Source of the DNA: Bacteroidales bacterium
GTDB taxonomy: Bacteria > Bacteroidota > Bacteroidia > Bacteroidales > FEN-979
Direction: 5' to 3'
DNA: 64,000 nucleotides
Assembly (NCBI GenBank): GCA_023231005.1
Contig: JALNWG010000006.1
Span: forward strand, 43,060-107,059
Under the pieces are notes generated by a model. That model was not told the DNA's origin, searched no databases, and was given only the letters and a program-made list of their open reading frames with translations. Positions 23,681 through 63,562 of this stretch are shown here, piece after piece (position 1 is the first letter of the stretch; every line of letters begins with the position of its first letter). Position numbers and translations under genes: made by a program.

Positions 23681-24586
23681 ATGAATAATTGGAACTCCTA
23701 TTTGAAAGGTTTTGCAGGATTTATGAAGCTTGAAAGGTCGCTTTCAAACAAAACTGTGGAAGGTTATTCTTATGATGTATGGAAATTGAGGAATTATCTT
23801 GATATGGAAAACATCATTATCACTCCTGAGAAAGTAGAAGTAAAACATCTGCGGGGGTTCATAACCTGGATTAACAAGGAAGGAATAACCGCTCGGGCTC
23901 AGGTTCGTATATTGCATGGAATAAGGGCATTTTTCAATTATTTATGGTCGGAAGGTGCTGTAAAACAGAATATTGCTTTATTGATCGACTTACCAGTAGT
24001 GGGTTTTAGATTGCCTGTGATGCTCAGTGTTACTGAAATTGACAGAATGATAAGAAACATTGACCTCAATGCGCCGGAAGGCAAAAGAAACAAAGCAATG
24101 GTTGAAACGCTTTATGGATGCGGACTTCGGGTTTCGGAACTGGTTAATTTGAAAATTTCTGAATTATACTTTCGTGAAGGATACATCAAAGTAACCGGTA
24201 AAGGTGACAAACAAAGAATAGTGCCTATTGGAACAGTTGCAATGAACGAAATTAATGGATATATGCGGTTTGCTCGGCCACAATTAACCATTAAAAAGGG
24301 ACAGGATAACTTTGTATTCCTTAACAAACGTGGTTCTTCCCTTTCCCGGGAAATGGTATTTGTCATCGTTCAACAACTGGCAATTATGGCAGGGATAAGA
24401 AAACCGATCGGTCCACATACTTTAAGACATTCCTTTGCATCACACCTTTTAGAAGGTGGCGCTGACCTACGTGCAATTCAAGAAATGCTGGGGCATGCTT
24501 CCATTGTCACAACGGAAATCTATACTCATATGAACAAAGAGCATCTCAGAGACACTATTATAATGTATCATCCACGGAACAATTAA
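23681..24586 (+). CDS. xerD: XerD-family tyrosine recombinase (chromosomal XerD or island integrase; undecided)
   Basis: 301 aa. LERSLSNKTVEGY, ETLYGCGLRVSEL, HTLRHSFASHLLEGGADLRAIQEMLGHASIVTTEIYTH (the R..HxxR..Y catalytic set), and an HPRN tail as in Bacteroidota XerD. Confidence 0.8.
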   Translation: MNNWNSYLKGFAGFMKLERSLSNKTVEGYSYDVWKLRNYLDMENIIITPEKVEVKHLRGFITWINKEGITARAQVRILHGIRAFFNYLWSEGAVKQNIALLIDLPVVGFRLPVMLSVTEIDRMIRNIDLNAPEGKRNKAMVETLYGCGLRVSELVNLKISELYFREGYIKVTGKGDKQRIVPIGTVAMNEINGYMRFARPQLTIKKGQDNFVFLNKRGSSLSREMVFVIVQQLAIMAGIRKPIGPHTLRHSFASHLLEGGADLRAIQEMLGHASIVTTEIYTHMNKEHLRDTIIMYHPRNN

Positions 24587-28847: not shown

Positions 28848-28866
28848 AGGGAAATAAAGGACAGTA

Positions 28867-34757: not shown

Positions 34758-34771
34758 GATTTATAAAGGAC

Positions 34772-34795
34772 AAAAAAAGCCAGTCAATGACTGGC
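34772..34795 (-). terminator. rho-independent terminator closing cassette 1
   Basis: Minus-strand gccagtca-t-tgactggc followed by TTTTTTT. Lies 31 nt after the stop at 34826. Confidence 0.7.
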
Positions 34796-50251: not shown

Positions 50252-51585
50252 GCGATATTCTTGTCGATGCGTTTATCAATCTTCGTTGGATGGTCCTGCA
50301 TGGTCTGAGAGGTGTCAACTGTCACATAATCAAACTCGATATCTGGAGACCATTTATTGAAATCCCGGATGAAATACAATGGTTCCAAACTGATTTGCCG
50401 GTAAATGCCCATCTCGGCATTGAGTTGCCAGAAGGCTTCCCGTTTGTCTGATCCGCTGCCTGCTCCGAGATTTCCCCCGGGAAGTCCTGAACCAACCAGG
50501 CATGGATCAACCCCGATAGCAAAGAGGATTTCCGAATTTGCAGCCTGTGAATCTGGCAGATAAGCATCATCTTTGAGCTTATTATCAATCACATTGATCT
50601 TCCATCCGGCCAGGTATTCACCTTTGAACTTGTTGAAAAAGGTGAAGGTGAGAAAGGCTTTCCCGGTATTCTCGACATCTGACAGGAAATCGTTCATTTC
50701 CGAAAGCACCTTCGTTCTTGCCGACTCACGCTGTTCGCGGGTGTAATCCGGTGAAGGGTACCTATTCATGAAATAATCATCGGGTATCTCAATGTGATAC
50801 TTGATGGTCATCTGGTTTTTCATGATGGCCTGCTTGAGCTGCGGGACCTTGTTGGCAATGCCGAGCCATCCGCTTTGACGGATTCCGTTCCATACTGAAA
50901 GATGATAATAGGATTTGTTGAACGAACGGTAAAAAACCGGATAAGCAAACTGAGGGTCCTGGTATCGTTTACCATCATATTTAAACGGATCATACATCGG
51001 AATCTTAGCCAATGATCCGTCGGCTTCATTCGGAGAAAGATCCCACTGGGCCGAAAAGAATAGGAATGGAATCCGTGATGGATGGTCACTGTCCATTTTG
51101 GCATTCCGGCAATAGGCCGGGTCTTTCACGAAAACCTTGTTGATCTTGTCTTTTCCCTTGTTCAGGATGAATTCCACCCAGCCGTTGGCAAATATTTCCA
51201 GACTGCCGATAAGGTCAATCCATTGAAAGTTCAAACGGTTGATGCGAAGAAACTCAACTACATCCGGATCAGTGACTATTTCCCGGATGGGCGCTCCCAG
51301 GTTATCCTTGCCTTTATCACGATATGCTAGGATGCCCCGGCCATAATGGACGGTCTTTCGTTTTTCAAGTGCCCGGAGTGCAATCGAATTCTTTTCCAGG
51401 TCAGTCAATACATTCTGAGGGAACAAATTGTCGTCACCCCAGGGTGACCAGGGCCAAGAGCTGTAATCCTTTGGGATCACAACCTTTTCTGTGGCTGCAT
51501 CCTCAGTCTTTTTATAGGATGTGGCGACAGCTTTGGCTCCCGGCAAAAACGCGATCCCATTTTCGTAAACGATCTTTTGTTTCAT
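50248..51585 (-). CDS. phage portal-like protein
   Basis: About 445 aa (start MKQKIVYENG at 51585). Size, position and a Gly-rich loop (GSGLPGGNLGAGSGSDKREAF) are reminiscent of portals. Not verified by search. Confidence 0.55.
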   Translation of the reverse strand: MKQKIVYENGIAFLPGAKAVATSYKKTEDAATEKVVIPKDYSSWPWSPWGDDNLFPQNVLTDLEKNSIALRALEKRKTVHYGRGILAYRDKGKDNLGAPIREIVTDPDVVEFLRINRLNFQWIDLIGSLEIFANGWVEFILNKGKDKINKVFVKDPAYCRNAKMDSDHPSRIPFLFFSAQWDLSPNEADGSLAKIPMYDPFKYDGKRYQDPQFAYPVFYRSFNKSYYHLSVWNGIRQSGWLGIANKVPQLKQAIMKNQMTIKYHIEIPDDYFMNRYPSPDYTREQRESARTKVLSEMNDFLSDVENTGKAFLTFTFFNKFKGEYLAGWKINVIDNKLKDDAYLPDSQAANSEILFAIGVDPCLVGSGLPGGNLGAGSGSDKREAFWQLNAEMGIYRQISLEPLYFIRDFNKWSPDIEFDYVTVDTSQTMQDHPTKIDKRIDKNIA

Positions 51586-51974
51586 CAATAGCAAACTTTC
51601 TTGTTATTGAATTCGATGATCAGCCGGATATGGAGCTTTCGCTTCTGACCGTTGGGCAGAAGGATGTTCCTGGTTGAATTGACCCAGTGGTTAGGATCTT
51701 TTGTAATCCGTTCAACGACAGGGATGTTCTTCTTTGCTGCAAAGATTTCCTTTCCCTTTTTCGTTCTTACTGAGCATTTGCAAGCATCCTTTAGTTCAAT
51801 GATCTCGCCGCCGGTTTTCTCCGACCTGTTTGCAGTGACAAATTTCAACTGGAACCTGACGGGTTTTTCCTGGCCATCAAATGAGTCCATGATCTCAAGG
51901 ACATCCCACAACCGTATAAAAGTAGAATTCATGGGAGCAATAGTACAATGGCGGTCATTTAGAATAAAGGACAC
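51585..51974 (-). CDS. phage-block hypothetical protein upstream of the portal
   Basis: 129-aa basic protein. Its stop overlaps the portal ATG. First gene after the cassette-2 terminator. Confidence 0.35.
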   Translation of the reverse strand: MSFILNDRHCTIAPMNSTFIRLWDVLEIMDSFDGQEKPVRFQLKFVTANRSEKTGGEIIELKDACKCSVRTKKGKEIFAAKKNIPVVERITKDPNHWVNSTRNILLPNGQKRKLHIRLIIEFNNKKVCY

Positions 51975-51994
51975 TATTTTAGCAGTGAAATTCA

Positions 51995-52010
51995 GACCAT
52001 AAAAAAAGCG
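51995..52010. repeat. 16-bp direct repeat GACCATAAAAAAAGCG, copy 1 (low-coordinate edge of cassette 2)
   Basis: Identical 16-mer at 63055-63070. Each copy is fused to a terminator hairpin. Confidence 0.6.
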
Positions 52011-52031
52011 CTCCGTCTTTCGATGGAACGC
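52001..52031 (-). terminator. rho-independent terminator closing cassette 2
   Basis: Minus-strand gcgttccatc-gaaa-gacggagcgc (one mismatch, one G-U pair) followed by TTTTTTT. Lies 41 nt after the stop at 52072. Confidence 0.65.
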
Positions 52032-52071
52032 TTGATTAAAAAGTGACTGAGTGTTAGAACACTCTATTGCC

Positions 52072-52419
52072 TCATTTTTTTACTGGCCGGTCATACTGGC
52101 AGCATCCTAGCAATGCATTGTAAGTTTTATCAGTGGCTTTGGCATTATCAGTATCGTGTCCGACCTTTGCAACTGCTTCTTCGATCTTTATGGCTGTGGT
52201 CTTGGTGTCATCAAAGGTCACAGTTAACATTAAATCTTCTGAATCCCACGTTGCTTTGGTGACGCCTTTTACGGAATTGGCAGCCTTCTCGATCCGGGTT
52301 TTACACATGCCGCAATTACCGTAAACTTTGATTTTTTCGGTTTTCGCAACATTGGCAAAAATTGAGGTCATGCTGAAAAACAGCAAACCTACTACTAACA
52401 TCATTGATTTTGTTCTCAT
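52072..52419 (-). CDS. periplasmic heavy-metal-associated (HMA) domain protein
   Basis: Signal peptide. YGNCGMCKTRIEKAANSVKGVT (CxxC). C-terminal DKTYNALLGCCQY. Paralogue of the C-terminal domain of the adjacent adaptor. Confidence 0.75.
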   Translation of the reverse strand: MRTKSMMLVVGLLFFSMTSIFANVAKTEKIKVYGNCGMCKTRIEKAANSVKGVTKATWDSEDLMLTVTFDDTKTTAIKIEEAVAKVGHDTDNAKATDKTYNALLGCCQYDRPVKK

Positions 52420-52448
52420 CGTTTTTAAAATTTAGTGGTTAAAAAAAA

Positions 52449-54107
52449 TTACTTTCTGTAATGACAGCACTCAGGTAAACTCTCGTATGTTTTGTCATCA
52501 GCTTTAAACTTTTCAGTATCATGTCCTGCTCTGGCAATGGCCTTCTGTATAGCGCTCAGATCGGTTTTCATGGAGTCAAATTCCACCTTGATTTTGTGAG
52601 TTTTTGTATCCCAGATGGCCGATGTTACGCCACCAACCGATTTAGCAGCCTTTTCTATCCGTTCCTTACACAAGTCGCAATTCCCGGATACGGTAAACAT
52701 TTCATTCTCTATCATAGGTTTCATTGATTTATCCATTGTTTCTTTAGTTGGCTGTGTTGATTTGTCCGCCGGGTCAGGGTTCCCCTTCGACCTTTTATCC
52801 CCGGGCATATCCATTCCAGGCATAGATGAAACCTGGCCACCTGAGGGATTCATCATACTCGGCTTGCCTTCAAGCTGGGCGGCTGCATCCACGCTGAACG
52901 TCCCCTGGGTTACAATTTCCTCTCCTTCGGTCAGACCATCCGCTACAATATAACTGCTGCCCAGCATGGGACCAAGACCAATTTCCCTGATTTTGAATAT
53001 GGGTTCGTCCGTTCCGGGCAGTTTTACATAAACAATGGAGCGTTTGCCGGTCCATAATACGGCTGAACGGGGAATAACCATTTTATCCTTAAATTCGGCC
53101 ATGTTGGCCTTGACAACCCCGGTGGCAAACATCTCCGGTTTCAATTTTCCTGAGCGGTTGTTAATCTCAACCCTTACCTTTGAAACACGGGTTATCGGAT
53201 CAACCACTGGATCAATAAAGATGATTTTTCCCGAATAAGTCTCCCCGGGCATAGCCTGGACAGTAAAATCAATTTTATCGCCGGATTTCAGAAATGGCAG
53301 GTCACTCTCGTAGGCATCAAACATAACCCATAAGGAGGTAAGATCAACAAGATCATATAAGGAAGTACCCTGCGAGACATAATCACCATTGTTCACCCGC
53401 CTTGAAGTAACGATTCCTGAAATGGTTGAAACAACTTCAAATTTGGTTTGAACCTTTCCGGAATTCTCTATGCCGGCAATCTGACTATCTGAAAGCTTCC
53501 AAAGCTGCAGTTTTTCCTTTGCTGCTTCATATATCTCGGGTTGGGATTGTTTTGTCTTCGCAGCTTCGAGCAATTCCTGTTGAGCAGTAACCAATTCCGG
53601 TGAGTAAATTAATGCCAGGGTTTGGCCCTTTTTAACCGTCTCACCTGTAAAATTCACCAGTAGTTTGTCGATACGTCCGGGGTATTGTGCAACCTGGCTT
53701 TGCAACAACCTTTCATCGGCCTGTAGCTTGCCATACAGCCTGACTTCTTTAACAGATGATTGGCGCGAAACCACCGAAGTGAGGACATTGGCGAGTTGGG
53801 CAGCTTCCTTGGTTAAATGAATAGCATTGGGGTCAACATCCGCTACATTCTGGTTTAGCGGGATCAGGTCCATGCCACAGATGGGGCATTTTCCCGGGGC
53901 ATCTCTGCGGATCTGAGGGTGCATCGCACAAGTCCAGATTGTTGTCTTTCCATCCTGTACGGCATGTTCATGCTTTTCCTCTACTTTTCCTGAGGAATGA
54001 AAAAACAGCCAGCCAATAAACAGACCTCCAATAGCAAACAAACTGAAATGGAAATATCTGTTGAACAAAATTTTCTTCATCAATATTGAACTCTTCGTGG
54101 TATTCAT
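52449..54107 (-). CDS. CusB-like RND adaptor with N-terminal CPxHPx-type metal-binding domain and C-terminal HMA domain
   Basis: 552 aa. TM, then WTCAMHPQIRRDAPGKCPICGMDL (53859-53939). MFP core. Met/Pro-rich linker MMNPSGGQVSSMPGMDMPG. C-terminal GNCDLCKERIEKAA...CCHY (52452-52697). Confidence 0.85.
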   Translation of the reverse strand: MNTTKSSILMKKILFNRYFHFSLFAIGGLFIGWLFFHSSGKVEEKHEHAVQDGKTTIWTCAMHPQIRRDAPGKCPICGMDLIPLNQNVADVDPNAIHLTKEAAQLANVLTSVVSRQSSVKEVRLYGKLQADERLLQSQVAQYPGRIDKLLVNFTGETVKKGQTLALIYSPELVTAQQELLEAAKTKQSQPEIYEAAKEKLQLWKLSDSQIAGIENSGKVQTKFEVVSTISGIVTSRRVNNGDYVSQGTSLYDLVDLTSLWVMFDAYESDLPFLKSGDKIDFTVQAMPGETYSGKIIFIDPVVDPITRVSKVRVEINNRSGKLKPEMFATGVVKANMAEFKDKMVIPRSAVLWTGKRSIVYVKLPGTDEPIFKIREIGLGPMLGSSYIVADGLTEGEEIVTQGTFSVDAAAQLEGKPSMMNPSGGQVSSMPGMDMPGDKRSKGNPDPADKSTQPTKETMDKSMKPMIENEMFTVSGNCDLCKERIEKAAKSVGGVTSAIWDTKTHKIKVEFDSMKTDLSAIQKAIARAGHDTEKFKADDKTYESLPECCHYRK

Positions 54108-54111
54108 AATA

Positions 54112-55569
54112 TCAATTTTCTTGAATGGGTGAAGATGCCATCAAACGTTGTAACCAGGAAATTGCCGTGTTGTAATCTACAACAGCTTCAATCTTTTTAA
54201 ATTCATAATCAAGCAACTGCTGCCTGACCCGTAAAATATCAGTGAGCGGGACAACAGATGTGGAAAGGCCTTTTAACATGATGTCAAGTGTTTTGCCGGC
54301 CAGATCACTCTGACTATCGTATAACTTCACCCTGCGTTGCCCGTCTTTAAATAATTGAACCGCTTCGTAATAGTTGGTTTGCAGAGAATTGGCCGTTGCT
54401 TGGTAATTTTCCTTATTGGCAGATTTCAATAACTCAGCCTCGATTTTCATGGCATTGTACTTATTCCGGTATATGGGCAAGGTAACCGTTGCCATCGGCA
54501 TGATCATATCCTTACCATTCATTGACGATGTGGACATCGCGCTTTTACTGATCACAGAATAATTCAATCCCAGCCCCATCATCGGATACCCCATTTTGGT
54601 AACCATTTTTTGGCGTGCATCCAGCGATTGCTGCTCGTATTGCAGCATCCCCAGCATGGGGTTATGTGAAAGCATGCTGTCTGTTACCGCAAGAAGTGAT
54701 AAGCCAAGTGAATCAGGAATAAGCTGATCAGGTAATTGAACAGGTGAAGCTGAAGGTCGGTTCAAATAAGCATTGAAACGGGCTTCGATTGTGTTTCGCT
54801 GGGTCTTCAACAGTTCAATATTGTTTTCAAGTTCACCAATTTCGATCTGAATCCTGTATAAATCGGCCAAGCCTGATCCACCGGATGAGCTGCCCATGGA
54901 GCTGCTTTGCATGGCAGATGGTGACTGAGCTGAACTTGCTCCCGACTGGCCACCGGAATTTCCACCCATGGTCTGCATTCCTTGTGGATTTGCGGAACTG
55001 CTTTGTGATGAGCCCGCCGGATTGGATGTTCCTGATGCAGGACTACTGTTTCCTCCTGCCGGAGCTGCTTTAAATTTCACCAGGGTGAGCCGCTCAATCG
55101 TATGCAGGATATCAAGGTTCTTTTCAGAAATCCGAATATCCTGCTGAACTTTCTGCAACTCGTACCAGCTCTTTTTCACATCAAAAAACACCTGCAATTT
55201 GGCATCCCTGAATGATTCAAATTTTGCTTTTGCCATAAGACTCATCTCATCCTTTGCGGATTTCAGCGTACCGAACCAGGGAAACATCTGCATCAGTTTT
55301 ATATCTGCGTTCTGTCTACCGTCAACGAGTTCCATGGGTTGAATAAATACTCCGACGTTTAATTCAGGATCCGGTAACGCTCCAACCTGCGGAACTTTTT
55401 GAAGTGCAGCCTGATATTCATAGAACTTCTGTTGAACAGTCGGGTTGTTCTTTGCTGATATGACCAGGTATTGCAACAGTGAGTCCGGTTGTTTCTGGCT
55501 GCTGGCAACAAACCAACCACAGGCCCCGATGAAAGCCAGCAATATGTTTTTATAAGCTGTGATTTTCAT
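54112..55569 (-). CDS. TolC-family outer-membrane factor with Ser/Gly/Gln/Met low-complexity insertion
   Basis: 485 aa. Two OEP-like repeats. Residues ~168-233 are low-complexity (AAPAGGNSSPASG...MQTMGGNSGG...AMQSSSMGSSSGGSG). Confidence 0.85.
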   Translation of the reverse strand: MKITAYKNILLAFIGACGWFVASSQKQPDSLLQYLVISAKNNPTVQQKFYEYQAALQKVPQVGALPDPELNVGVFIQPMELVDGRQNADIKLMQMFPWFGTLKSAKDEMSLMAKAKFESFRDAKLQVFFDVKKSWYELQKVQQDIRISEKNLDILHTIERLTLVKFKAAPAGGNSSPASGTSNPAGSSQSSSANPQGMQTMGGNSGGQSGASSAQSPSAMQSSSMGSSSGGSGLADLYRIQIEIGELENNIELLKTQRNTIEARFNAYLNRPSASPVQLPDQLIPDSLGLSLLAVTDSMLSHNPMLGMLQYEQQSLDARQKMVTKMGYPMMGLGLNYSVISKSAMSTSSMNGKDMIMPMATVTLPIYRNKYNAMKIEAELLKSANKENYQATANSLQTNYYEAVQLFKDGQRRVKLYDSQSDLAGKTLDIMLKGLSTSVVPLTDILRVRQQLLDYEFKKIEAVVDYNTAISWLQRLMASSPIQEN

Positions 55570-55571
55570 CT

Positions 55572-58500
55572 CTATTGGGTATTACTTGTTTGAATTGCTT
55601 TTTTATTGGCGCGCAATACTGCCCTTTCTCTCCACATCGCCTGGAACATCGGGACCACAAAGACGGTCATCACCTGGATGATCATACCACCAAAGGTTGG
55701 TATCGCCATGGGGACCATAATATCAGCCCCCTTCCCGGTTGATGTTAAAACAGGTAAGAGCGCAATCACCGCAACCGCGGTGGTCATCATGGCAGGGCGG
55801 ACACGTTTCAGCCCGGCAGCAACCACCGCTTCACGAACTTCGTGGACGGTCGTTGGATGTCGTTGTTCAAATACCTGGTGTATGTATGTTCCCATAATCA
55901 CCCCGTCATTGGTAGCAATGCCAAAAAGGGCAATAAAACCGACCCAGACTGCGACACTCAGGTTGATGGTATGCATCTGGAACATATCCCGCAGGTTAAT
56001 TCCGGCAACGGAAAAGTTCATAAACCAACCCTGTCCATAGAGCCAGAGCATTATAAATCCACCGGCAAACGCCACAAAAACACCTGAAAAATGAATGAAG
56101 GCGGCGGTCACCGTACGGAACTGGAAGTACAACAGCAGCAATATAAGGATCAGACTGATGGGGATTACGATGGAGAGCCTTTTTGTGGCCCTGATCTGCT
56201 GTTCATAATTCCCGGCAAATTTGTATGAAACCCCGGGAGGCAGTTTTATACCGCCGGTGCTTATTTTCGCCTGGATGATTTTTGCGGCATCTTCAACTAC
56301 ATCAACTTCGGCTTTACCTTCCTGCATATCGAAGATCACATATCCAACCAGGAAGGTATTTTCACTACGAATCATTTGCGCACCCCTGGTGTAGTCAATG
56401 TCGGCGATCTCACCCAGCGGAACCTGCACGCCATTCATAGCAGGGATCAGAATGCGTTTAATATCATCTGGATTATCCCTTAGTTCACGGGCATAACGGA
56501 CCCTGATCGGGAATCTTTCACGTCCTTCAACTGAGTTGCTGAGCGACATGCCTCCAACTGCCACCTGCAGAATTTCCTGCACGTCGCTGATGCTCATTCC
56601 GTAGCGGGCCATCGCTTCACGGTTCAGCTTAATTTCAAGATAAGGAGCACCAACTGCACGGTCGTAGAATACAGATGTGGCTTTTACAGAAGGGACATCT
56701 TTCAAAACTTTCTCGAACATCATACCTGCCTGTTCGATCGATTCCAGGTCGGGCCCATAGACCTTCAGTCCCATGGGTGCCCGCATCCCGGTGGAGAGCA
56801 TGACCAACCGTGTTTCAATGGGCTGTAATTTCGGTGCTGATGTCAAACCCGGAATGTTGGTCACTTTGACGATTTCATTCCAGATATCGTTTGGTTTTTT
56901 AATCTGCGGGCGCCATTGACGGAAAAATTCGCCTTTTTCGTCCGGAATAAGACTGTCTGCCGGAATTATTCTGAATGTCTCTTTTTCAGGATTGTACTTT
57001 GATCCATTTTTTAACCGGTAGTAATCATTCCTGTCCGTTTTGAACCGCATCCTGTGTCCGTCTTCATCAAGAATATATTCTGACCGGTAGTTTATGGTAT
57101 TCTCGAACATCTGAACAGGTGCGGGATCCAATGCTGAATTCACCCGGCCCCATTTGCCGACGGCAATTTCAACTTCAGGAATGACCGAAAGCCGTTTATC
57201 AAGCGTTTCGATGTACTCAAGGTTTTTTTCAATGCTCGAATGAGGCATACTGGTGGGCATCAGCAGGTATGAACCTTCATTAAGTGAAGGCATGAATTCT
57301 TTACCGGTACCGGGAAATGTTTTCACCGCACCCTGCCATACCGCTGTCTGTCTCACACTCTTCCAGCCGATCTTCTCCAAACCATCCGGGACAATTCCGA
57401 AAATTTTATCAATGCCCTGCCATGCCAGGATGCCGAAAAGCAAAGTAAAAGCAGGAAGCATAAGGAATTTCCATTTATGGATCAAACACCACCGAAGGAT
57501 GGGTTCATAAAAATGTACCATGGTCATCAAGGCACCAAGAATGACAGTCACGATACCGGCCACAAAAATGAAGTTGACAACAGAACTGTTGTGAGCGCCC
57601 AATGGAAGCCATTCGATGGAAAGGTACCAGACAGCTACCAAAACAGTGATGGCAATGTTGATGTAGTTGGTTATTGCACTGCTTTTTTCTTTCCACAGAT
57701 GTCCGGATAAATTATTGAATCCGATGGCAACCAAAGCCAAAGCCGGCCATGTGTGCCAGAAAATGACAAACAGGACCCCTGCACCAATTAGAATTCCGTT
57801 CCAGATTTTGCGAATTTTGGTCTTGTCAAAACGTATATTAAAAAAAATGTGCACCAGTGTTGGCAAAACAATGATGCCAAGTAGAAAAGCCGACAGAAGG
57901 GCAAACGTTTTGGTAAAGGCCAATGGTCGGAAAAGTTTTCCTTCGGCAGCTTCCATGGCAAATACAGGTAAGAAACTTACTATGGTAGTGGCAATCGAAG
58001 TAACCACGGCAGCTCTCACTTCTGTAGTCGCCTGGTAGATGACATCCAGCAATTTCTTTCCCCGTATCCCCTTATTCTCCGGCATCTCCAGGTGTCGAAG
58101 GATATTCTCTACATCCACAATACCAATGTCAACCATAACGCCAATAGCAATTGCAATTCCTGACAAGGCGACAATGTTGGCATCAACCCCGAAGAAGCGC
58201 ATCAGGATAAAGGTCATCAGCACTCCCAAAGGCAATAATCCGGCGACAATGAATGAAGCCCGCAGGTTCATGACAAGCACAATAATGACGATGATGCTGA
58301 TAAGGATTTCATGGGACAGGGCATATTCAAGGGTGCCAATGGTTTCCTTGATCAACCCGGTCCTGTCGTAGAAAGGAACAATGCTCACTTTTGAGATACT
58401 GCCATCCGGCAAGGTCTTTTGAGGCAACCCTGCTTCAATTTCCTTTATCTTCTGTTTCACATTGCCGATGACCTCCATCGGATTGGAACCGTAACGGGCA

Positions 58501-59423
58501 ACAACAACCGCCCCCACGGCCTCTGATCCGGCTTTGTCAAGTCCCCCGCGGCGTGTAGCCGGTCCAAATGTAGTATGGCCAATATCCTTTATTCTGACCG
58601 GAACATTGTTCCGAACGGCGACCACGGAGTTTTCAAGATCATCGAGGTTCTTGATATAACCAAGTCCTCTGATGATATACTCCACATTGTTCAATTCAAT
58701 GGTTTCAGCACCGATGTCGAGATTGCTTTTACGAACGGCATTCATCACATCCATGACTGAAACACTGAATGCTTTTAATGCTTCAGGGTTAAGATCGACC
58801 TGGTACTCCTTTACAAAACCACCCACCGATGCCACTTCTGAGACCCCTTCCGCAGTTGCCAGGCCATATTTTACATAAAAATCCTGGATCGTGCGTAGCT
58901 CCGCCGGATCCCATCCGCCATTTGGCTTCCCGGTTTTGGGATCCCGCCCTTCAAGTGTGTACCAGAATATCTGACCCAGCGCCGTTGCATCAGGCCCTAA
59001 CGTTGGCTGCACGCCTGCTGGCAAGGTCCCGGATGGCAATGAATTGAGTTTTTCCAGGATACGGGAGCGACTCCAATAGAATTCAACTTTATCTTTAAAG
59101 ATGATATAGATGAACGACATGCCAAACATGGAGGTACTTCGAACCGTACTCACCCCGGGAATTCCCAACAAGGCAGTGGTTAATGGATAGGTCACCTGGT
59201 CCTGGATATCTTTAGGAGAGCGACCCATCCATTCGGTAGCAACTATTTGCTGGTTGTCACCAATGTCAGGGATCGCATCCACTGGTACCGGGTCGCGTGG
59301 AATAAAACCGGTTTGCCAGTTAAACGGTGCAAACACAATCCCACCGACAATAAAGGCGATCAGAAAAATGAAAGTGATCAGCCGGTTATCCAGGAAATAC
59401 TTTACAAGTCGGTTAAAAAACAT
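55572..59423 (-). CDS. CusA-type Cu(I)/Ag(I) RND pump, long form
   Basis: 1283 aa. IAIAIGVMVDIGIVDVEN parallels the CusA TM4 motif. YLLMPT, VQMFEN and LVMLSTG align, by recollection, with the CusA Met573/623/672 contexts. Extra hydrophobic block at residues ~538-640. Confidence 0.88.
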   Translation of the reverse strand: MFFNRLVKYFLDNRLITFIFLIAFIVGGIVFAPFNWQTGFIPRDPVPVDAIPDIGDNQQIVATEWMGRSPKDIQDQVTYPLTTALLGIPGVSTVRSTSMFGMSFIYIIFKDKVEFYWSRSRILEKLNSLPSGTLPAGVQPTLGPDATALGQIFWYTLEGRDPKTGKPNGGWDPAELRTIQDFYVKYGLATAEGVSEVASVGGFVKEYQVDLNPEALKAFSVSVMDVMNAVRKSNLDIGAETIELNNVEYIIRGLGYIKNLDDLENSVVAVRNNVPVRIKDIGHTTFGPATRRGGLDKAGSEAVGAVVVARYGSNPMEVIGNVKQKIKEIEAGLPQKTLPDGSISKVSIVPFYDRTGLIKETIGTLEYALSHEILISIIVIIVLVMNLRASFIVAGLLPLGVLMTFILMRFFGVDANIVALSGIAIAIGVMVDIGIVDVENILRHLEMPENKGIRGKKLLDVIYQATTEVRAAVVTSIATTIVSFLPVFAMEAAEGKLFRPLAFTKTFALLSAFLLGIIVLPTLVHIFFNIRFDKTKIRKIWNGILIGAGVLFVIFWHTWPALALVAIGFNNLSGHLWKEKSSAITNYINIAITVLVAVWYLSIEWLPLGAHNSSVVNFIFVAGIVTVILGALMTMVHFYEPILRWCLIHKWKFLMLPAFTLLFGILAWQGIDKIFGIVPDGLEKIGWKSVRQTAVWQGAVKTFPGTGKEFMPSLNEGSYLLMPTSMPHSSIEKNLEYIETLDKRLSVIPEVEIAVGKWGRVNSALDPAPVQMFENTINYRSEYILDEDGHRMRFKTDRNDYYRLKNGSKYNPEKETFRIIPADSLIPDEKGEFFRQWRPQIKKPNDIWNEIVKVTNIPGLTSAPKLQPIETRLVMLSTGMRAPMGLKVYGPDLESIEQAGMMFEKVLKDVPSVKATSVFYDRAVGAPYLEIKLNREAMARYGMSISDVQEILQVAVGGMSLSNSVEGRERFPIRVRYARELRDNPDDIKRILIPAMNGVQVPLGEIADIDYTRGAQMIRSENTFLVGYVIFDMQEGKAEVDVVEDAAKIIQAKISTGGIKLPPGVSYKFAGNYEQQIRATKRLSIVIPISLILILLLLYFQFRTVTAAFIHFSGVFVAFAGGFIMLWLYGQGWFMNFSVAGINLRDMFQMHTINLSVAVWVGFIALFGIATNDGVIMGTYIHQVFEQRHPTTVHEVREAVVAAGLKRVRPAMMTTAVAVIALLPVLTSTGKGADIMVPMAIPTFGGMIIQVMTVFVVPMFQAMWRERAVLRANKKAIQTSNTQ

Positions 59424-59480
59424 AGATTTAATTTAAAAACATGATCCATTTCGCCATTTACACGCTCATTTTCAGCTAAG

Positions 59481-60584
59481 TTAGTACTTTAATAAAGTTC
59501 CACCAAAGGAATCGTTGTTATTCAAAACGATGGTATAAAAATAAATACCGGAAGGCAGCTTATCTCCGTTGATAATTATCTTATTATCAGTAATAGTTTC
59601 ATCAACCTGAACTCTTTTCCCGATTGAATTGTAGAGTGAAACAGAAAGAAGAGTTCTCCCCGCATCAAGTTGCAATGTCACGACAGAAGAAAACGGATTT
59701 GGAAAAGCATGAAAACCTTCGGCTGGGTTGTTCTCATTGAGTCCCAGGGCAGATGTACTTTTAGCATAATACCGGACTTGCTGAAAATAAGGAGGCTGTT
59801 GATTCTGAAAACCCCTATTGATCTGTAGTATCGGGAAGCCGGTGCTTTTTGCGTACCACCTGTAATAGTAATTGTCAGGATAAACATGAACATCGGTGAT
59901 CACATTATTCACATATAAGGTGTCATACACCGTTTCAGTAGTCTTTATCCGGATTACCTGAGCTGTAGTATCCGGGATTGTGATCGTACCCCATCCATCG
60001 ACAACGGATTTGCTGACAACATGATATACCCTCAATGTATCACCGGAAATCGGAATATGGATTTTGGCAACATTTTCCGATGAATCGCCATAGGCTAAAA
60101 GTGGGAAAATAGTCAGGTTCGAGCCAAGAACTATGTTGGACGGATCCTCAAGACCATACTTTGACAATCCGGTTATATCCCGGATGTAATGATCATAATA
60201 GCACTGTGTTATGTCAGTGTGGGTAATATGGGAGTGATACATGTAACACCGCTCTTTTCGTGCAATATTCGAAAGTGGAAAATAACCTGCATTAAGGGTG
60301 GCATCATGGTTAATCCAGTCGACGGTATCCAGGGAGGCCTGTAGACTTCCACAACATGGGATTAGTATGCTGAAATCCCATGTTATATTGGCACCGGACG
60401 GGCCTGGCAAAAGGGTTACCCCCTGAGCGCTGTCAACCCTGACGCTGAACTGAACATCTCCTGGTTGCGGCAAGTCATTGATATCAAGTGATATTTGAGC
60501 CATCCCGGGTACAATCAACAGGATCGTAATAAAAAACGCAAGAACCGCTTTCAAAAATGTTTGATGTGTTTTTTTCATTTTCAT
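59481..60584 (-). CDS. T9SS-sorted secreted protein of unknown function inside the Cu cassette
   Basis: Signal peptide. C-terminal AFPNPFSSVVTLQL...LPSGIYFYTIVL is a T9SS CTD pattern. His/Cys-rich patch CYMYHSHITHTDITQCYYDHY. Confidence 0.6.
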   Translation of the reverse strand: MKMKKTHQTFLKAVLAFFITILLIVPGMAQISLDINDLPQPGDVQFSVRVDSAQGVTLLPGPSGANITWDFSILIPCCGSLQASLDTVDWINHDATLNAGYFPLSNIARKERCYMYHSHITHTDITQCYYDHYIRDITGLSKYGLEDPSNIVLGSNLTIFPLLAYGDSSENVAKIHIPISGDTLRVYHVVSKSVVDGWGTITIPDTTAQVIRIKTTETVYDTLYVNNVITDVHVYPDNYYYRWYAKSTGFPILQINRGFQNQQPPYFQQVRYYAKSTSALGLNENNPAEGFHAFPNPFSSVVTLQLDAGRTLLSVSLYNSIGKRVQVDETITDNKIIINGDKLPSGIYFYTIVLNNNDSFGGTLLKY

Positions 60585-60622
60585 ATTGTTTTATGGTCTG
60601 ATTAGGTGACTGATATATATGA

Positions 60623-60910
60623 CTACCGCATACCACATCCCCCGCCACTACCACCGTAATTGTAGCCGTCTTTATTACGTTTCATCTTACAATCACCATG
60701 GTTATGGCCCCCCTTGGCATCGGCTGTGACCAGGTCCATGCCGCATTTTGGGCATGAGCCTGGCTTTTCGCTGACCACTTCAGGGTGCATCGGGCATGTG
60801 TAAGTTACTTTACCCTGACCTGCAGCAGTCGGGCTTGCTTTAGGAGCACAACCGGCAATTGTAATCATCATTGCTGCAATCAGACCGAAAATCAAATTCA
60901 CTGGTTTCAT
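60623..60910 (-). CDS. small lipoprotein with CPMHP...CPxCGM heavy-metal-binding domain
   Basis: Lipobox IAGC. YTCPMHPEVVSEKPGSCPKCGMDL is the same module as the N-terminus of the CusB-like protein. His/Cys/Gly tail GGHNHGDC...GGGCGMR. Confidence 0.7.
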   Translation of the reverse strand: MKPVNLIFGLIAAMMITIAGCAPKASPTAAGQGKVTYTCPMHPEVVSEKPGSCPKCGMDLVTADAKGGHNHGDCKMKRNKDGYNYGGSGGGCGMR

Positions 60911-60921
60911 ATACTATGATA

Positions 60922-61473
60922 TTAATTGAGATGCAACTTCGCATGTTCTTTTCTCATTGTCTGCATGTTATCAACCATGCTTTGCATATTAGCTGACATG
61001 GTTCCCATGGCCGGGCAGTTTTTCATGTGAAGCAACATCATGCTGTCCATTTTCATCGTGGTCATGTTCATCATATTTCCCATTACCACCATCATGCTGT
61101 CCATGTTGCACATCATACCACCAGAACCACCCATCATGCCGCCAGAACCGCCCATCATACCATTGGATCCCATTCCGTTCATCTTCATCATGTCTTTGCA
61201 ATAGGTCTGGAAGTGCATGGCAAAAGAGGTGTCTGGCATATGATATAAGCTGTCGTACATTTTGCAGGTCGAATCCATCATGGTCATCCCAGGCGTTTTA
61301 TGGCGTTCAACCAGTAAAGATTCATATTGTTGTGCCTGCGAATAATCTTTATTCAGCAAGGCTTCAGTAGCCTTCAAATCTGCCGAATTAGTGTCAGGTG
61401 TCGTTTTACTTTTGTTACAACTTGCCGCAAATAACATCACGGCTCCAATGGCAATAATTGCAATTTTTCTCAT
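60922..61473 (-). CDS. Met-rich lipoprotein (putative periplasmic Cu(I)/Ag(I) binder)
   Basis: Lipobox FAASC. GMMGGSGGMMGGSGGMM repeat and MxM/MMxM runs throughout the C-terminal 110 aa. Confidence 0.7.
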   Translation of the reverse strand: MRKIAIIAIGAVMLFAASCNKSKTTPDTNSADLKATEALLNKDYSQAQQYESLLVERHKTPGMTMMDSTCKMYDSLYHMPDTSFAMHFQTYCKDMMKMNGMGSNGMMGGSGGMMGGSGGMMCNMDSMMVVMGNMMNMTTMKMDSMMLLHMKNCPAMGTMSANMQSMVDNMQTMRKEHAKLHLN

Positions 61474-61594
61474 TTTGAATAATTTTAATTTGTGGATAAA
61501 TAATTGAAATGACTTGCGACGCTGATAGCAACATCAAAAGCAGGAAAATGCCGTTAATTCAGGCAGATCCTTACAAGGATAATGAAATGGATTT

Positions 61595-61996
61595 TCAGAA
61601 AAGGAAAACCTGCAGGACTTGGGAAGTCTGTCCTGAACAAATAGGTTTTGACGTAAAGGGATTTTTTCGAAGTCCTCCTGATCCGTCATTCATGAGGGAT
61701 AATTCAGGTGAATTCGAGAATGCAAGTATAGTAGGCAGCGATACTTGTTCCAATTGTGTTTGAAATCCTGCCTTAAAGTCTAAATGATCCTGGGTGGATT
61801 CAAATTGATCGGTGATCTTGAGACTGATCTTTTCATTATGACAACCCGGGCAATTGCCGTTACAGCAATTGTCGGGTGTCGAATACAAAGCCGTATGCAT
61901 GAGATTTTTGCCACAATAATGCCGGGTTATTGTCAATCCGGTCGTACCGAAAAGCAACGCAATGATCATTAAAATATGTCCGGCCTTCTTAAGCAT
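61595..61996 (-). CDS. small membrane-anchored Cys-rich protein (HYC...CC...CPGC motifs; HYC_CC_PP-like by recollection)
   Basis: N-terminal TM ILMIIALLFGTTGLTI, then RHYCGKNL, DNCCNGNCPGCHNE. A -7 box TAATTTTG (62001-62008) lies 4 nt before the ATG. Confidence 0.55.
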   Translation of the reverse strand: MLKKAGHILMIIALLFGTTGLTITRHYCGKNLMHTALYSTPDNCCNGNCPGCHNEKISLKITDQFESTQDHLDFKAGFQTQLEQVSLPTILAFSNSPELSLMNDGSGGLRKNPFTSKPICSGQTSQVLQVFLF

Positions 61997-62055
61997 GCAA
62001 CAAAATTACTAACATTTAAGACTAATAACGATTATTGTTTCAAAATATTACGCTT

Positions 62056-62070
62056 GGATAAAATTTATCC
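62056..62070. promoter_or_regulatory. 15-bp palindrome GGATAAA-A-TTTATCC upstream of the Cys-rich gene
   Basis: Perfect 7-bp arms. Lies 60-75 nt upstream of the ATG at 61996, just upstream of the -7 box. Confidence 0.3.
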
Positions 62071-62139
62071 TATGTAAAGTTAGACAACCAAATCAATAAA
62101 AACTTGCGGTATATCATAAAAAAAGTTGAATGCCTTATC

Positions 62140-62916
62140 CTACTTGATTACCATAAAAGTAAATACCGTGTTACCATCCATCCCTGTGGTCATGTCCATC
62201 ACTTCGATGATACCCTTAACACCTGATGCGGTAATATACCCAAGCATGTCACCCATCGCCAGATTTTTTACCGACGAACCGGTTACCATAGATACCGCTT
62301 CAGGAGTTTCATCCATGATTATACCGACTTTAGTATTGTTTTTAGTTGTCCAGGTTGATAAATTGAATATGGGATCGGATGGGGCGCCAATACAAACACC
62401 ATCTGTGGTGGAATATGTGTAAACCAGGTCAACCGATCCTTGATGTGTAAAAGCATTGGCGGCAGTATATGTTGCCAAAGTTGAACCATTGATGAAACTT
62501 GAAAACGTACTTGTCGTTGTTCCTAAAGTGATTTCAATGTCTTTTACAATAGAATAGGTAAGCGTCTTTTGGATTGGCACATCAGAAAGACCACCTTTTT
62601 CTGAAATCGTGAAAACCAAAGTTCCAACAGAGTCAGTTACAATATAATTTACCACTGCTGAATAACTTTTACTGTTGGTAACACCAGGAATGGCAACTAC
62701 TTTGCCTCCTGTCTTGGTCATGGTAATCGAGTTAATATCATCATTTGAGGTTGATCCCTTGATTGTTAATGGAATAGTGTCGCCTAAATGCCCGATTGCC
62801 CTGTCCTGGGTCACTGTCAGGGTCATATCAGAGGTCTCAGCGCTTTTTTTACAGCTTGCTACCATAAGAGCAAGACTTGCAAGAAAGATTACGGATAATG
62901 TATTTATATTTTTCAT
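62140..62916 (-). CDS. beta-rich lipoprotein, unknown function
   Basis: Lipobox VASC. 258 aa, Thr/Ser/Val-rich. Own -7 box TATCTTTG (62941-62948, minus strand). Followed by CTTTTTTTATGA. Confidence 0.45.
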   Translation of the reverse strand: MKNINTLSVIFLASLALMVASCKKSAETSDMTLTVTQDRAIGHLGDTIPLTIKGSTSNDDINSITMTKTGGKVVAIPGVTNSKSYSAVVNYIVTDSVGTLVFTISEKGGLSDVPIQKTLTYSIVKDIEITLGTTTSTFSSFINGSTLATYTAANAFTHQGSVDLVYTYSTTDGVCIGAPSDPIFNLSTWTTKNNTKVGIIMDETPEAVSMVTGSSVKNLAMGDMLGYITASGVKGIIEVMDMTTGMDGNTVFTFMVIK

Positions 62917-63054
62917 GTGTCGTTATTTAGAATGATTCTGCAAAGATATACTTAAATATCTTGATAATTACATATATTTGAATTTAATCTCAATAAGGTT
63001 AAGTACTATAAATTAATTCCATGCTAAGGATAACCCATTTGTTTGCTGCTTTAC

Positions 63055-63070
63055 GACCATAAAAAAAGCG
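63055..63070. repeat. 16-bp direct repeat GACCATAAAAAAAGCG, copy 2 (high-coordinate edge of cassette 2)
   Basis: Identical to 51995-52010. Confidence 0.6.
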
Positions 63071-63091
63071 TTCAGGCCTTAGCCTGAACGC
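63061..63091 (-). terminator. rho-independent terminator after the 148-aa gene
   Basis: Minus-strand gcgttcaggc-taag-gcctgaacgc (perfect 10-bp stem) followed by TTTTTTT. Confidence 0.75.
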
Positions 63092-63115
63092 CGAAATCTC
63101 AGATTTGACCGAAGG

Positions 63116-63562
63116 TCAGAACTTGATTTTTCCTTCAACATCAGAGATGCTTGCATCGAAGGATGATCTGAGAAAATCAATGACTTTCTTGATGCCAGGG
63201 GTGAAACTGGTAGTGAAGACATTTCCGTCTGAGTCGTTCAGCCGCATGGAGCAGTTGAAATCATTGGAGGCTGTCTGAAACCTTTCCAGTTCGCTCCGGG
63301 TCTGGACCAGCTTCGCCCTTTTTTCGATGACCAGTTGGAGGTTTTCGACCTTGAGGATCTTCTCCATCAGGGTCATTTCCTTGACCGGTTCAGGAGCAGG
63401 AACAACGGGTTTTTCAAGTTCGACCTTCAAGAGCGGCTTTTGCTCCTCGGTTTTGTTCTCTTCAGGGTTGAGAACCGTTTTTGCGGCTGCAAGAACTGCG
63501 TTTTCTTCCTTGGATGCTCCGCCGTTGGTCGGCTTCAGTACTGGTGCTGTAATCTTTGTCAT
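63116..63562 (-). CDS. hypothetical protein with Pro/Glu/Lys-rich N-terminal half
   Basis: 148-aa ORF between the SSB-side intergenic region and cassette 2. No motif recognised. Confidence 0.4.
   Translation of the reverse strand: MTKITAPVLKPTNGGASKEENAVLAAAKTVLNPEENKTEEQKPLLKVELEKPVVPAPEPVKEMTLMEKILKVENLQLVIEKRAKLVQTRSELERFQTASNDFNCSMRLNDSDGNVFTTSFTPGIKKVIDFLRSSFDASISDVEGKIKF

Follow-up and report, generated by a model that had tools for sequence, protein, structure and literature searches.

The 64-kb stretch of DNA analysed here, referred to below as the window (positions 43,060 to 107,059 of contig JALNWG010000006.1 from an uncultured Bacteroidales bacterium), contains a tailed prophage that runs from ~24.6 kb to beyond the end of the window at 64 kb and encodes tape-measure, baseplate and fibre proteins, a GH108 endolysin, a portal-like protein and a DUF6712 protein. 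Within this prophage, a copper/silver (Cu/Ag) efflux cassette of ~11 kb (cassette 2, hereafter also called the cargo) separates a phage gene of 148 amino acids (aa), on its left, from a phage gene of 115 aa, on its right, and all genes of the region are encoded on the minus strand. A short direct repeat lies at the two edges of the cargo. The original prediction, made from the letters of the window, had read this repeat as part of a duplicated and diverging terminator that might mark an att-like core or a recombination hotspot. The coordinates of the features are collected in Table 1, and the loci with which they were compared are designated by L numbers.

In the direction of transcription, the cargo encodes a lipoprotein-like protein of 258 aa (62140-62916), proteins of 133 aa and 183 aa, an HMBD protein of 95 aa, a Por_Secre_tail protein of 367 aa, a CusA-type RND protein of 1283 aa, an outer-membrane factor of 485 aa, a CusB-type membrane fusion protein (MFP) of 552 aa and an HMA protein of 115 aa (52072-52419). 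In Pfam, six of these nine proteins matched metal-efflux, metal-binding or secretion-tail families and the other three had no match; no integrase, transposase or recombinase was found among the nine. The only tyrosine recombinase of the window is encoded at the far end of the prophage (23681-24586). No terminal inverted repeats were found at the ends of the cargo, and scans of the region for tRNA genes and Rfam elements found nothing. The G+C content of the cargo (42-49%) is close to that of the phage flanks (45-47%), with a lower value (36.7%) in the lipoprotein segment alone.

Table 1. Features at the cargo insertion site of the prophage (window coordinates)
Feature	Position	Strand	Description
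Phage 148-aa gene	63116..63562	-	Open reading frame (ORF); final gene of the early/accessory block
Terminator module B	63055..63091	-	Hairpin 63068-63091, T7, ATGGTC; predicted native terminator of the 148-aa gene
GTAAAGC	63048..63054	-	Native phage spacer continuing module B (compared with L006, L005 and L007)
Cargo (cassette 2)	52048..63047	-	~11 kb, nine genes (Pfam); absent from cargo-free relatives; right end uncertain within ~52048-52060
TATCTTTG	62941..62948	-	25 nt upstream of the lipoprotein ATG; fits TAnnTTTG
Terminator module A	51995..52037	-	AATCAA, hairpin 52008-52031, T7, ATGGTC; predicted ectopic 148-gene terminator of the other allele class (GCGTTCC...GGAGCGC)
14-nt spacer TGAATTTCACTGCT	51981..51994	-	Same length as native GTAAAGnnnnnnnn, unrelated sequence; seen only in cargo-bearing contigs
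Promoter-like element AAAATAGTGTCCTTTATT...GTACTATTGC	51937..51980	-	Precedes the structural operon; family-conserved; repeated before two other prophage operon starts
Phage 115-aa gene	51585..51932	-	First gene of the structural block; followed by the portal-like 448-aa gene, then the DUF6712 gene

Two copies of a terminator module at the cargo edges

The 16-mer GACCATAAAAAAAGCG was found at exactly two sites in the window, 51995-52010 and 63055-63070, even when two mismatches were allowed. Its significance had been left to shuffled controls: dinucleotide-preserving shuffles gave a mean of 0.07 matches per shuffle, and none of 100 shuffles contained two. The repeat brackets the Cu/Ag cassette as had been claimed, with small offsets, the left copy (copy B) being followed by 7 nt of phage sequence (GTAAAGC) before the cargo begins and the cargo ending ~15-30 nt before the hairpin of the right copy (copy A). 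A repeat search showed that the 16-mer is the conserved tail of a 37-nt direct repeat with 78% identity (51995-52031 versus 63055-63091).

Read on the minus strand, both copies consist of a hairpin, a run of seven T residues (T7) and ATGGTC. The hairpin of copy B (63091->63055), GCGTTCAGGC-TAAG-GCCTGAACGC, has a perfect stem of 10-11 bp (-20.8 kcal/mol, z-score -5.2), and that of copy A (52031->51995), GCGTTCCATC-GAAA-GACGGAGCGC, contains one A-C mismatch and one G-U pair (-15.6 kcal/mol, z-score -4.3). The outer stem is shared and the inner stem differs, exactly as first described. When the sequence was scanned with a terminator consensus, copy B was the top match. In an alignment of 11 hairpins of the phage family, the stem positions were paired in 99.1% of cells, and five of the ten pairs had changed on both sides; none of 500 shuffles equalled the observed values, and slid partners paired at only 19-43%. 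The hairpin sits ~22-28 nt 3' of the stop codon of the 148-aa gene across the family. A G+C-rich stem of this length, a tetraloop, a tract of 7-8 U residues, this distance from the stop codon and compensatory substitutions are all features of Rho-independent terminators, and nothing about the module appears unusual in this respect. The hairpin and T-run are therefore predicted to form the intrinsic terminator of the phage 148-aa gene, to which we assign it because the terminator type is kept after 148-gene homologues even in a lineage in which ArdC is the next gene.

The possibility that the motif is a common terminator type, scattered with no relation to cassette boundaries, was not borne out. 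Besides being limited to two copies in the window, GACCATAAAAAAAGCG occurred 17 times in IMG/VR, once in a relative of this phage (L005) and 16 times in unrelated sequence, and no related hairpin was found beside these other 16 matches. The presence of the 16-mer in a single phage relative among the 17 matches indicates that it is not a widespread terminator type.

Several further candidates were rejected. The proposed third, partial copy near 62116, CTTTTTTTATGA (minus strand, 62114-62125), turned out to be a bare T-run without a hairpin (z-score -0.75; 39 of 200 shuffles folded as well). Its surroundings can be aligned with the cassette of L075 and that of L018, although the motif is still recognisable only in L075; the site is part of the cargo and not a copy of the module. 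Short matches at 62832-62851, inside the signal-peptide codons of the lipoprotein gene, and at 60586-60601 look like chance, being comparable to many listed matches of 14-16 nt. A reading of the hairpin as an integron attC-like site was also discarded; its stems do not fit the R''/R' consensus and no integrase is present. Separately, a small stem-loop, GACC-UUCG-GGUC, lies upstream of the main terminator, at or after the stop codon of the 148-aa gene (TGACCTTCGGTC; 63104-63115, minus strand), and is kept in many family members (L006, L008, L017, L120 and L126).

Empty sites, junctions and terminator alleles

Relatives of the phage were found by searching IMG/VR with both flanking proteins. The cassette is missing from at least nine related phage contigs, in which 120-130 bp containing one terminator copy separate the 148-aa gene from the 115-aa gene; these single-copy empty sites include L005, L006/L002, L007/L003, L008, L011, L012 and L017. 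The cargo-free junction had been predicted as a single copy between the 148-aa gene and a 129-aa gene, which was essentially right. That 129-aa ORF was counted from a GTG at 51974, and its start is most likely the ATG at 51932, which gives 115 aa and was the call made by the gene caller in another sample. The intergenic module of the family is ~125 bp long and consists of the stop codon, the ~22-28 nt already mentioned, the hairpin, T7-8, ATGGTCGTAAAG, ~8 nt, the promoter-like AAAATAGTGTCCTTTATT...GCCATTGTAGTATTGC (also given as AAAATAGTGTCCTTTATT...TAGTATTGC) and the ATG. Both window copies aligned to the same 42 nt of L003, and the promoter-like TGTCCTTTAT contained in the module was not duplicated along with the terminator.

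At the left edge, the window is identical to L006 through the hairpin, the T-run, ATGGTC and GTAAAGC, after which the window continues with AGCAAAC... and L006 with CTGGAGG.... The blastn match to phage sequence stops at 63048/63049. On the basis of this divergence, the left cargo junction was placed at 63048|63047. At the right edge, homology to the family is sure from AATCAA, 5 nt before the hairpin, to ATGGTC, and after copy A it resumes at AAAATAGTGTCC. Upstream of AATCAA there is a weak likeness to the stop-codon context of a 148 gene (TTCTAACA-CTCA compared with L012; p ~0.008, uncorrected for 12 comparisons), which hints that copy A may reach back to ~52060. The homology of L018 to the window cargo is kept only as far as 52048.

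The hairpins of the family fall into two classes. Class 1, GCGTTCAGGC/GCCTGAACGC, is found in L006, L008 and L009 and includes copy B, the hairpin of which is identical to that of L006, the closest cargo-free relative. Class 2, GCGTTCC.../...GGRACGC (also given as GCGTTCC...GGRRCGC) with AATCAA as its 5' flank, follows the 148-aa genes of L005, L011, L012, L120 and L126 and includes copy A. The T-run and ATGGTC are kept in both classes, which explains why 16 nt are identical while the inner stems differ by paired substitutions. Judged by sequence, copy B reads as native phage sequence and copy A as a different natural allele of the phage terminator instead of a duplicate that diverged on site; what the 16 identical bases represent is the module tail conserved in the family, not a recombination core. 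Of the original idea of duplicated, diverging terminator copies, the homology of the two copies as versions of one phage module stands, and their divergence in place does not. An exact-match search of IMG/VR for hairpin allele A gave no matches. When the A-type junction (T-run, ATGnnC and TGAATTTCACTGCT) was searched by exact match in IMG/VR and the JGI metagenomes, one further contig was recovered, the cargo-bearing L098; the same search found no cargo-free or deletion-product version.

Other cargoes were observed at the same site. RadC and a lipoprotein follow the 148-gene terminator in L009, and a 169-aa protein and a type IIG restriction-modification enzyme occupy this position in L014. 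L126 carries 6.3 kb encoding two proteins secreted by the type IX secretion system (T9SS) on the opposite strand, inserted right after GTAAAGAC and before TGTCCTTTAT; downstream of this cargo lie the 115-aa homologue, portal and DUF6712 genes, with no second terminator. All left junctions fall a few bases past GTAAAG. The site is a cargo hotspot, and the simplest explanation for where the junctions fall is selection, under which nothing but the spacer of ~8-14 nt that separates terminator from promoter would tolerate interruption.

Origin of the cargo and of the second terminator

A genome scan based on CusA identified chromosomal cus operons in Bacteroidales metagenome-assembled genomes (MAGs; L019, L020, L023 and L025). 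The operon of L019, which is surrounded by TPR, RDD and oxidoreductase genes, shares 86% DNA identity with the cargo over 7.4 kb and has no phage-type terminator after its HMA gene, indicating that the cargo is of host origin. The 16-mer was absent from all four chromosomal operons. Searches of IMG/VR with the first (lipoprotein) and last (HMA) genes of the cassette gave no matches, and when the lipoprotein and the 183-aa protein were looked up by exact match, only the same phage appeared, in three samples. The motif TATCTTTG upstream of the lipoprotein gene agrees with TAnnTTTG, reportedly the Bacteroidetes -7 promoter consensus (it is said to go back to Bayley and co-workers in 2000), and may be a cargo-borne promoter, a candidate recognised from a single short motif.

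Three cassette-bearing loci were informative about the history of the cargo. L075 (CAYYPH010000038.1) is a prophage in a Prolixibacteraceae MAG, and its backbone is more distant from the window than those of L002 and L003 (87% versus 93-94% identity of the 448-aa protein). It shares the cassette with the window, followed by the same hairpin A, T7, ATGTCC and TGAATTTCACTGCT; identity to the window is ~88% in the cargo and ~76% in the backbone, with the step at ~52000. In L098 (Ga0209749_1000051, JGI metagenome), a close relative of the window phage, copy A is identical to that of the window, whereas the cargo is only 83-92% identical. A tract of ~660 bp that comprises the HMA gene, terminator A and the promoter (window 51900-52560) is essentially 100% identical in L098 and lies between cargo of only 83-87% and phage genes of 90-93% identity, so that it looks like a recent recombination patch. 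The patterns in L075 and L098 indicate that the cargo and copy A behave as a unit with a history separate from that of the backbone, and that recombination inside the cargo continues. The third locus, L018 (CAZGIM010000033.1; 7090-7330 and 17400-23756), is a metal-resistance island in which genes resembling those of a second metal cassette of the prophage (cassette 1, described below) are followed by a decayed 127-bp remnant of the 148-gene 3' end that still carries the first arm and loop of hairpin B. This remnant is joined to what is left of the lipoprotein gene, beyond which come the cus cassette, arsenic-resistance genes (ACR3-type SBF, DsbD-like and an ArsC-ArsM fusion) and a MacB-type ABC transporter. 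The 148-gene remnant implies that a left junction like that of the window existed in an ancestor of L018, and the island resembles phage cargo that has become fossilised in a chromosome or some other element.

The backbone itself is mosaic across the insertion site. The 148-aa protein is 96% identical to that of L002 and 86% to that of L003, and right of the cargo the window, L002 and L003 are roughly equidistant (78-82% for the 115-aa protein and 92-94% for the 448-aa protein). Correspondingly, DNA identity to L002 is 94.4% in the left flank and 83.6% in the right flank.

Taken together, these observations argue, with rather more confidence than doubt, that the cargo is a moron situated in a short terminator-promoter spacer and that the second terminator was gained by recombination between phage lineages. 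The moron concept of Juhala and Hendrix was developed for lambdoid and other temperate phages and has been reviewed in 'The moron comes of age' (PMC3594210). We apply it here because the cargo lies in a short, dispensable spacer. Like phage morons, the cargo is extra DNA between genes that are adjacent in close relatives, would form its own transcription unit with a putative promoter and a predicted terminator, comes from the host and would probably benefit the lysogen, in this case through metal resistance. It departs from the usual moron in being very large, an 11-kb RND efflux operon of nine genes in a prophage that holds a second metal cassette of ~11.7 kb, in having a downstream terminator that is an allele of the phage's own and not a foreign one, and in a G+C content that is not clearly different from that of the backbone, a difference that is typical of morons but not strictly defining.

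We propose that a Cu/Ag efflux operon from Bacteroidales chromosomes entered the dispensable spacer between the terminator and the promoter. Copy B would stop read-through from the early operon into the cargo, the cargo would be transcribed from its own promoter, presumably active in the lysogen, and copy A would keep cargo transcription out of the late structural operon, the promoter-like element of which follows directly. A single illegitimate cross-over, immediately 3' of a 148-type gene from another lineage, most likely attached copy A to the 3' end of the cargo when two related phages recombined; the structural genes would then have undergone homologous exchange, and copy A has since moved together with the cargo. 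Several points weigh against this proposal. The functions of the terminators and promoters are predictions. The exact-match searches recovered no cargo-free phage with hairpin allele A or the TGAATTTCACTGCT spacer, and the donor lineage is one that we infer. The exact junction between the cargo and copy A is uncertain within 52048-52060. The break in identity between the 148-aa and 115-aa genes could predate the acquisition of the cargo or be unrelated to it, since the boundaries of phage modules are commonly mosaic. Finally, bracketing by a B-type copy was seen in one lineage only, plus the decayed remnant in L018.

A different account of the two copies is suggested by the promoter-early stem-loop (PeSL) cassettes of the T4-type phages RB49 and phi1, of which each genome has ~50, made up of a promoter and a stem-loop (Arbiol et al. 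2010, PMC2839356). By analogy, a circle composed of the cargo and one module would integrate by a single homologous cross-over into the resident module, which would by itself leave a copy on each side, and the reverse reaction would delete the cargo; the predicted circle junction is hairpin A, T7ATGGTC and GTAAAGCAGCAAAC (also given as GTAAAGCAGCAAACAAATGGG). The topology matches that of RB49 and phi1, with variable genes between two stem-loop or terminator copies and one copy in relatives (PMC2839356), the sites are intergenic and selectively 'acceptable', and as in the PeSL cassettes early transcription would be insulated from late transcription. The separate history of the cargo and the 100%-identical tract of HMA gene and module A in L098 between more diverged cargo and backbone favour this account, and the sequences flanking the identical 16-mer differ on both sides, as would be expected around a cross-over. 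However, copy B is native for 7 nt past the 16-mer, so that a resident phage with hairpin B next to TGAATTTCACTGCT would be needed, and none was found by exact match in IMG/VR or the JGI metagenomes; the exact homology available is short (16-23 bp); and L126 gained cargo at this site without a second copy. Moreover, unlike PeSL cassettes, only the terminator part is duplicated here, the module occurs in two copies in the window with no dispersed family, the left copy is apparently unrecombined and native, no mini-circles were seen, although no search aimed at the circle junction was made, and the phage is a temperate phage of Bacteroidota. As the module is not dispersed and only its terminator half is duplicated, it is not a member of the PeSL family, and we regard PeSL-like shuffling as an unlikely origin of the arrangement, though one deserving attention. 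An extension of the same idea, in which the 148-gene terminator module serves temperate Bacteroidota phages as a PeSL-like 'docking' substrate for recombination and host operons carrying one copy circularise and hop between phages and chromosomal islands, is a speculation to which we give slightly less credit; if true, it would constitute a recombinase-independent phage route for the spread of metal-resistance operons on the 10-kb scale.

The remaining explanations are improbable to differing degrees. Duplication in place of a target of ~40-60 bp, whether as a long target-site duplication or by a replication-based process, followed by divergence or conversion of one copy, would account for direct repeats at both cargo edges and for the perfect identity of the 16-mer, but we consider it distinctly improbable: about 8 of the 21 positions beyond the 16-mer have changed, most of them in compensatory pairs of the inner stem, right next to 16 nt of 100% identity; both hairpin versions are natural alleles in cargo-free relatives; copy A is followed by TGAATTT... 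and not by the GTAAAG that such a duplication requires; and neither the transposase nor the terminal inverted repeats expected of a transposon with target-site duplication were detected. An att core, in which the 16-mer would form attL and attR of an integrative element carrying the cus operon, would likewise explain why the two cargo ends share an identical short core of which empty sites have one copy. Here the evidence is still less favourable. The cargo encodes no integrase or other recombinase and there is no tRNA; the arms are homologous hairpins (78% over 37 nt) and not unrelated attP and attB arms; the core is the conserved tail of a terminator, and native phage sequence runs through and past it at copy B; the chromosomal operons L019, L020, L023 and L025 lack it; and different cargoes sit at the same point without any repeat. 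In particular, cargo without duplication in L126 and the absence of a cassette recombinase argue against both an att site and a target-site duplication. Thus, of the two alternatives in the original prediction, the cargo hotspot is upheld by L009, L014 and L126, and the att-like core, which we now judge very improbable, is not. Least credible of all is a coincidental resemblance between an unrelated intrinsic terminator of the cargo and that of the phage. Terminators do share generic features, with A- or T-runs after G+C-rich hairpins, and half of the 16-mer is an A-run; but the shuffles never produced two matches, the likeness extends to the ATGGTC that follows the T-run, to the outer stem (GCGTTC/RCGC) and to AATCAA, the 5' flank shared with family members, the chromosomal cus operons have no such terminator, and the other 16 IMG/VR matches to the 16-mer lack a related hairpin.

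With insertion as a moron and recombination between phage lineages as the favoured reading, the locus is ordinary in kind, a phage cargo insertion site that calls for no new mechanism. What sets it apart is a cargo of unusual size and kind, with a downstream terminator that was borrowed as an allele of the one the phage already has. It provides a base-pair-resolved example of a temperate environmental Bacteroidales phage that carries a very large host operon, and the Cu/Ag RND cassette and the Zn/Co/Cd-type cassette together amount to ~23 kb of cargo in one prophage. The locus illustrates how cargo can settle in the handful of bases that are dispensable between a terminator and the promoter after it, how a co-directional cargo may gain insulation from a second copy of the phage's own terminator acquired by recombination, and how cargo and backbone can have separate recombination histories. 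It is relevant to the spread of metal resistance by phages and to the rules by which cargo boundaries are set in metagenomic prophages.

The second cassette and neighbouring features

Cassette 1 (46497-34778, ~11.7 kb), which is absent from L002, encodes FUR-family regulators, a DUF6660 protein, a 1461-aa CzcA-OEP fusion, an MFP, a P-II-like protein, a P-type ATPase with HMA and a DUF302 protein. It ends with an unrelated terminator (AGCCAGTCATTGACTGGCT plus T7) fused to TGTCCTTTAT. In L075 and L018 the cus cassette is directly preceded by a homologue of cassette 1, indicating that the cassettes shift their relative position between prophages.

On the minus strand of the window, TGTCCTTTAT occurs three times (28854-28863, 34763-34772 and 51964-51973; 0.17 expected), each time just upstream of a phage operon start, and in two of the three copies TACTATTGC follows 18-30 nt downstream and precedes an ATG (0 expected). 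AAATAGTGTCCTTTATT also precedes homologues of the 115-aa gene with only 33% identity (L130 and L132). TGTCCTTTAT is probably a phage late promoter or a regulator-binding site. Both metal cassettes stop immediately upstream of a copy of it.

Genes beyond the 148-aa gene were read from a matching ENA metagenome contig (ERZ27247350 k141_757587), in which ArdC, methyltransferases and RadC are encoded upstream of this gene. The 148-aa protein had no match in Pfam or PHROG and belongs to a large family, with at least 545 homologues at E<=1e-10. The tyrosine recombinase gene at the far end of the prophage (23681-24586, plus strand), beside its tail-fibre end, encodes a XerC/D-like protein (Phage_integrase with a SAM-like N domain) and could be either the integrase gene of the phage or a Xer gene of the host; no tRNA was found anywhere in the window.

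Some of the compared loci showed additional features. In L126, an IS110-family transposase gene (DEDD_Tnp_IS110/Transposase_20; 993-2198) lies immediately upstream of the 148-aa gene. L015 and L017 are two different blocks of the 148-gene 3' end, 115-aa, portal-like and DUF6712 genes on one contig of 57.5 kb (IMGVR_UViG_3300009502_002970), which could represent tandem or chimeric phages or an assembly artefact, and the intergenic spacer of L015 is full of tandem repeats of the ATGGAAGAAATGGAAGATTT type. In another contig (ENA ERZ1426847, 34 kb), the 148-gene homologue P0036, called as 213 aa, is directly followed by MutS, SpoU methylase, TPR, dNK and HPPK genes that resemble a host chromosome, reflecting either the end of the prophage in that lineage or a truncation at the hotspot.

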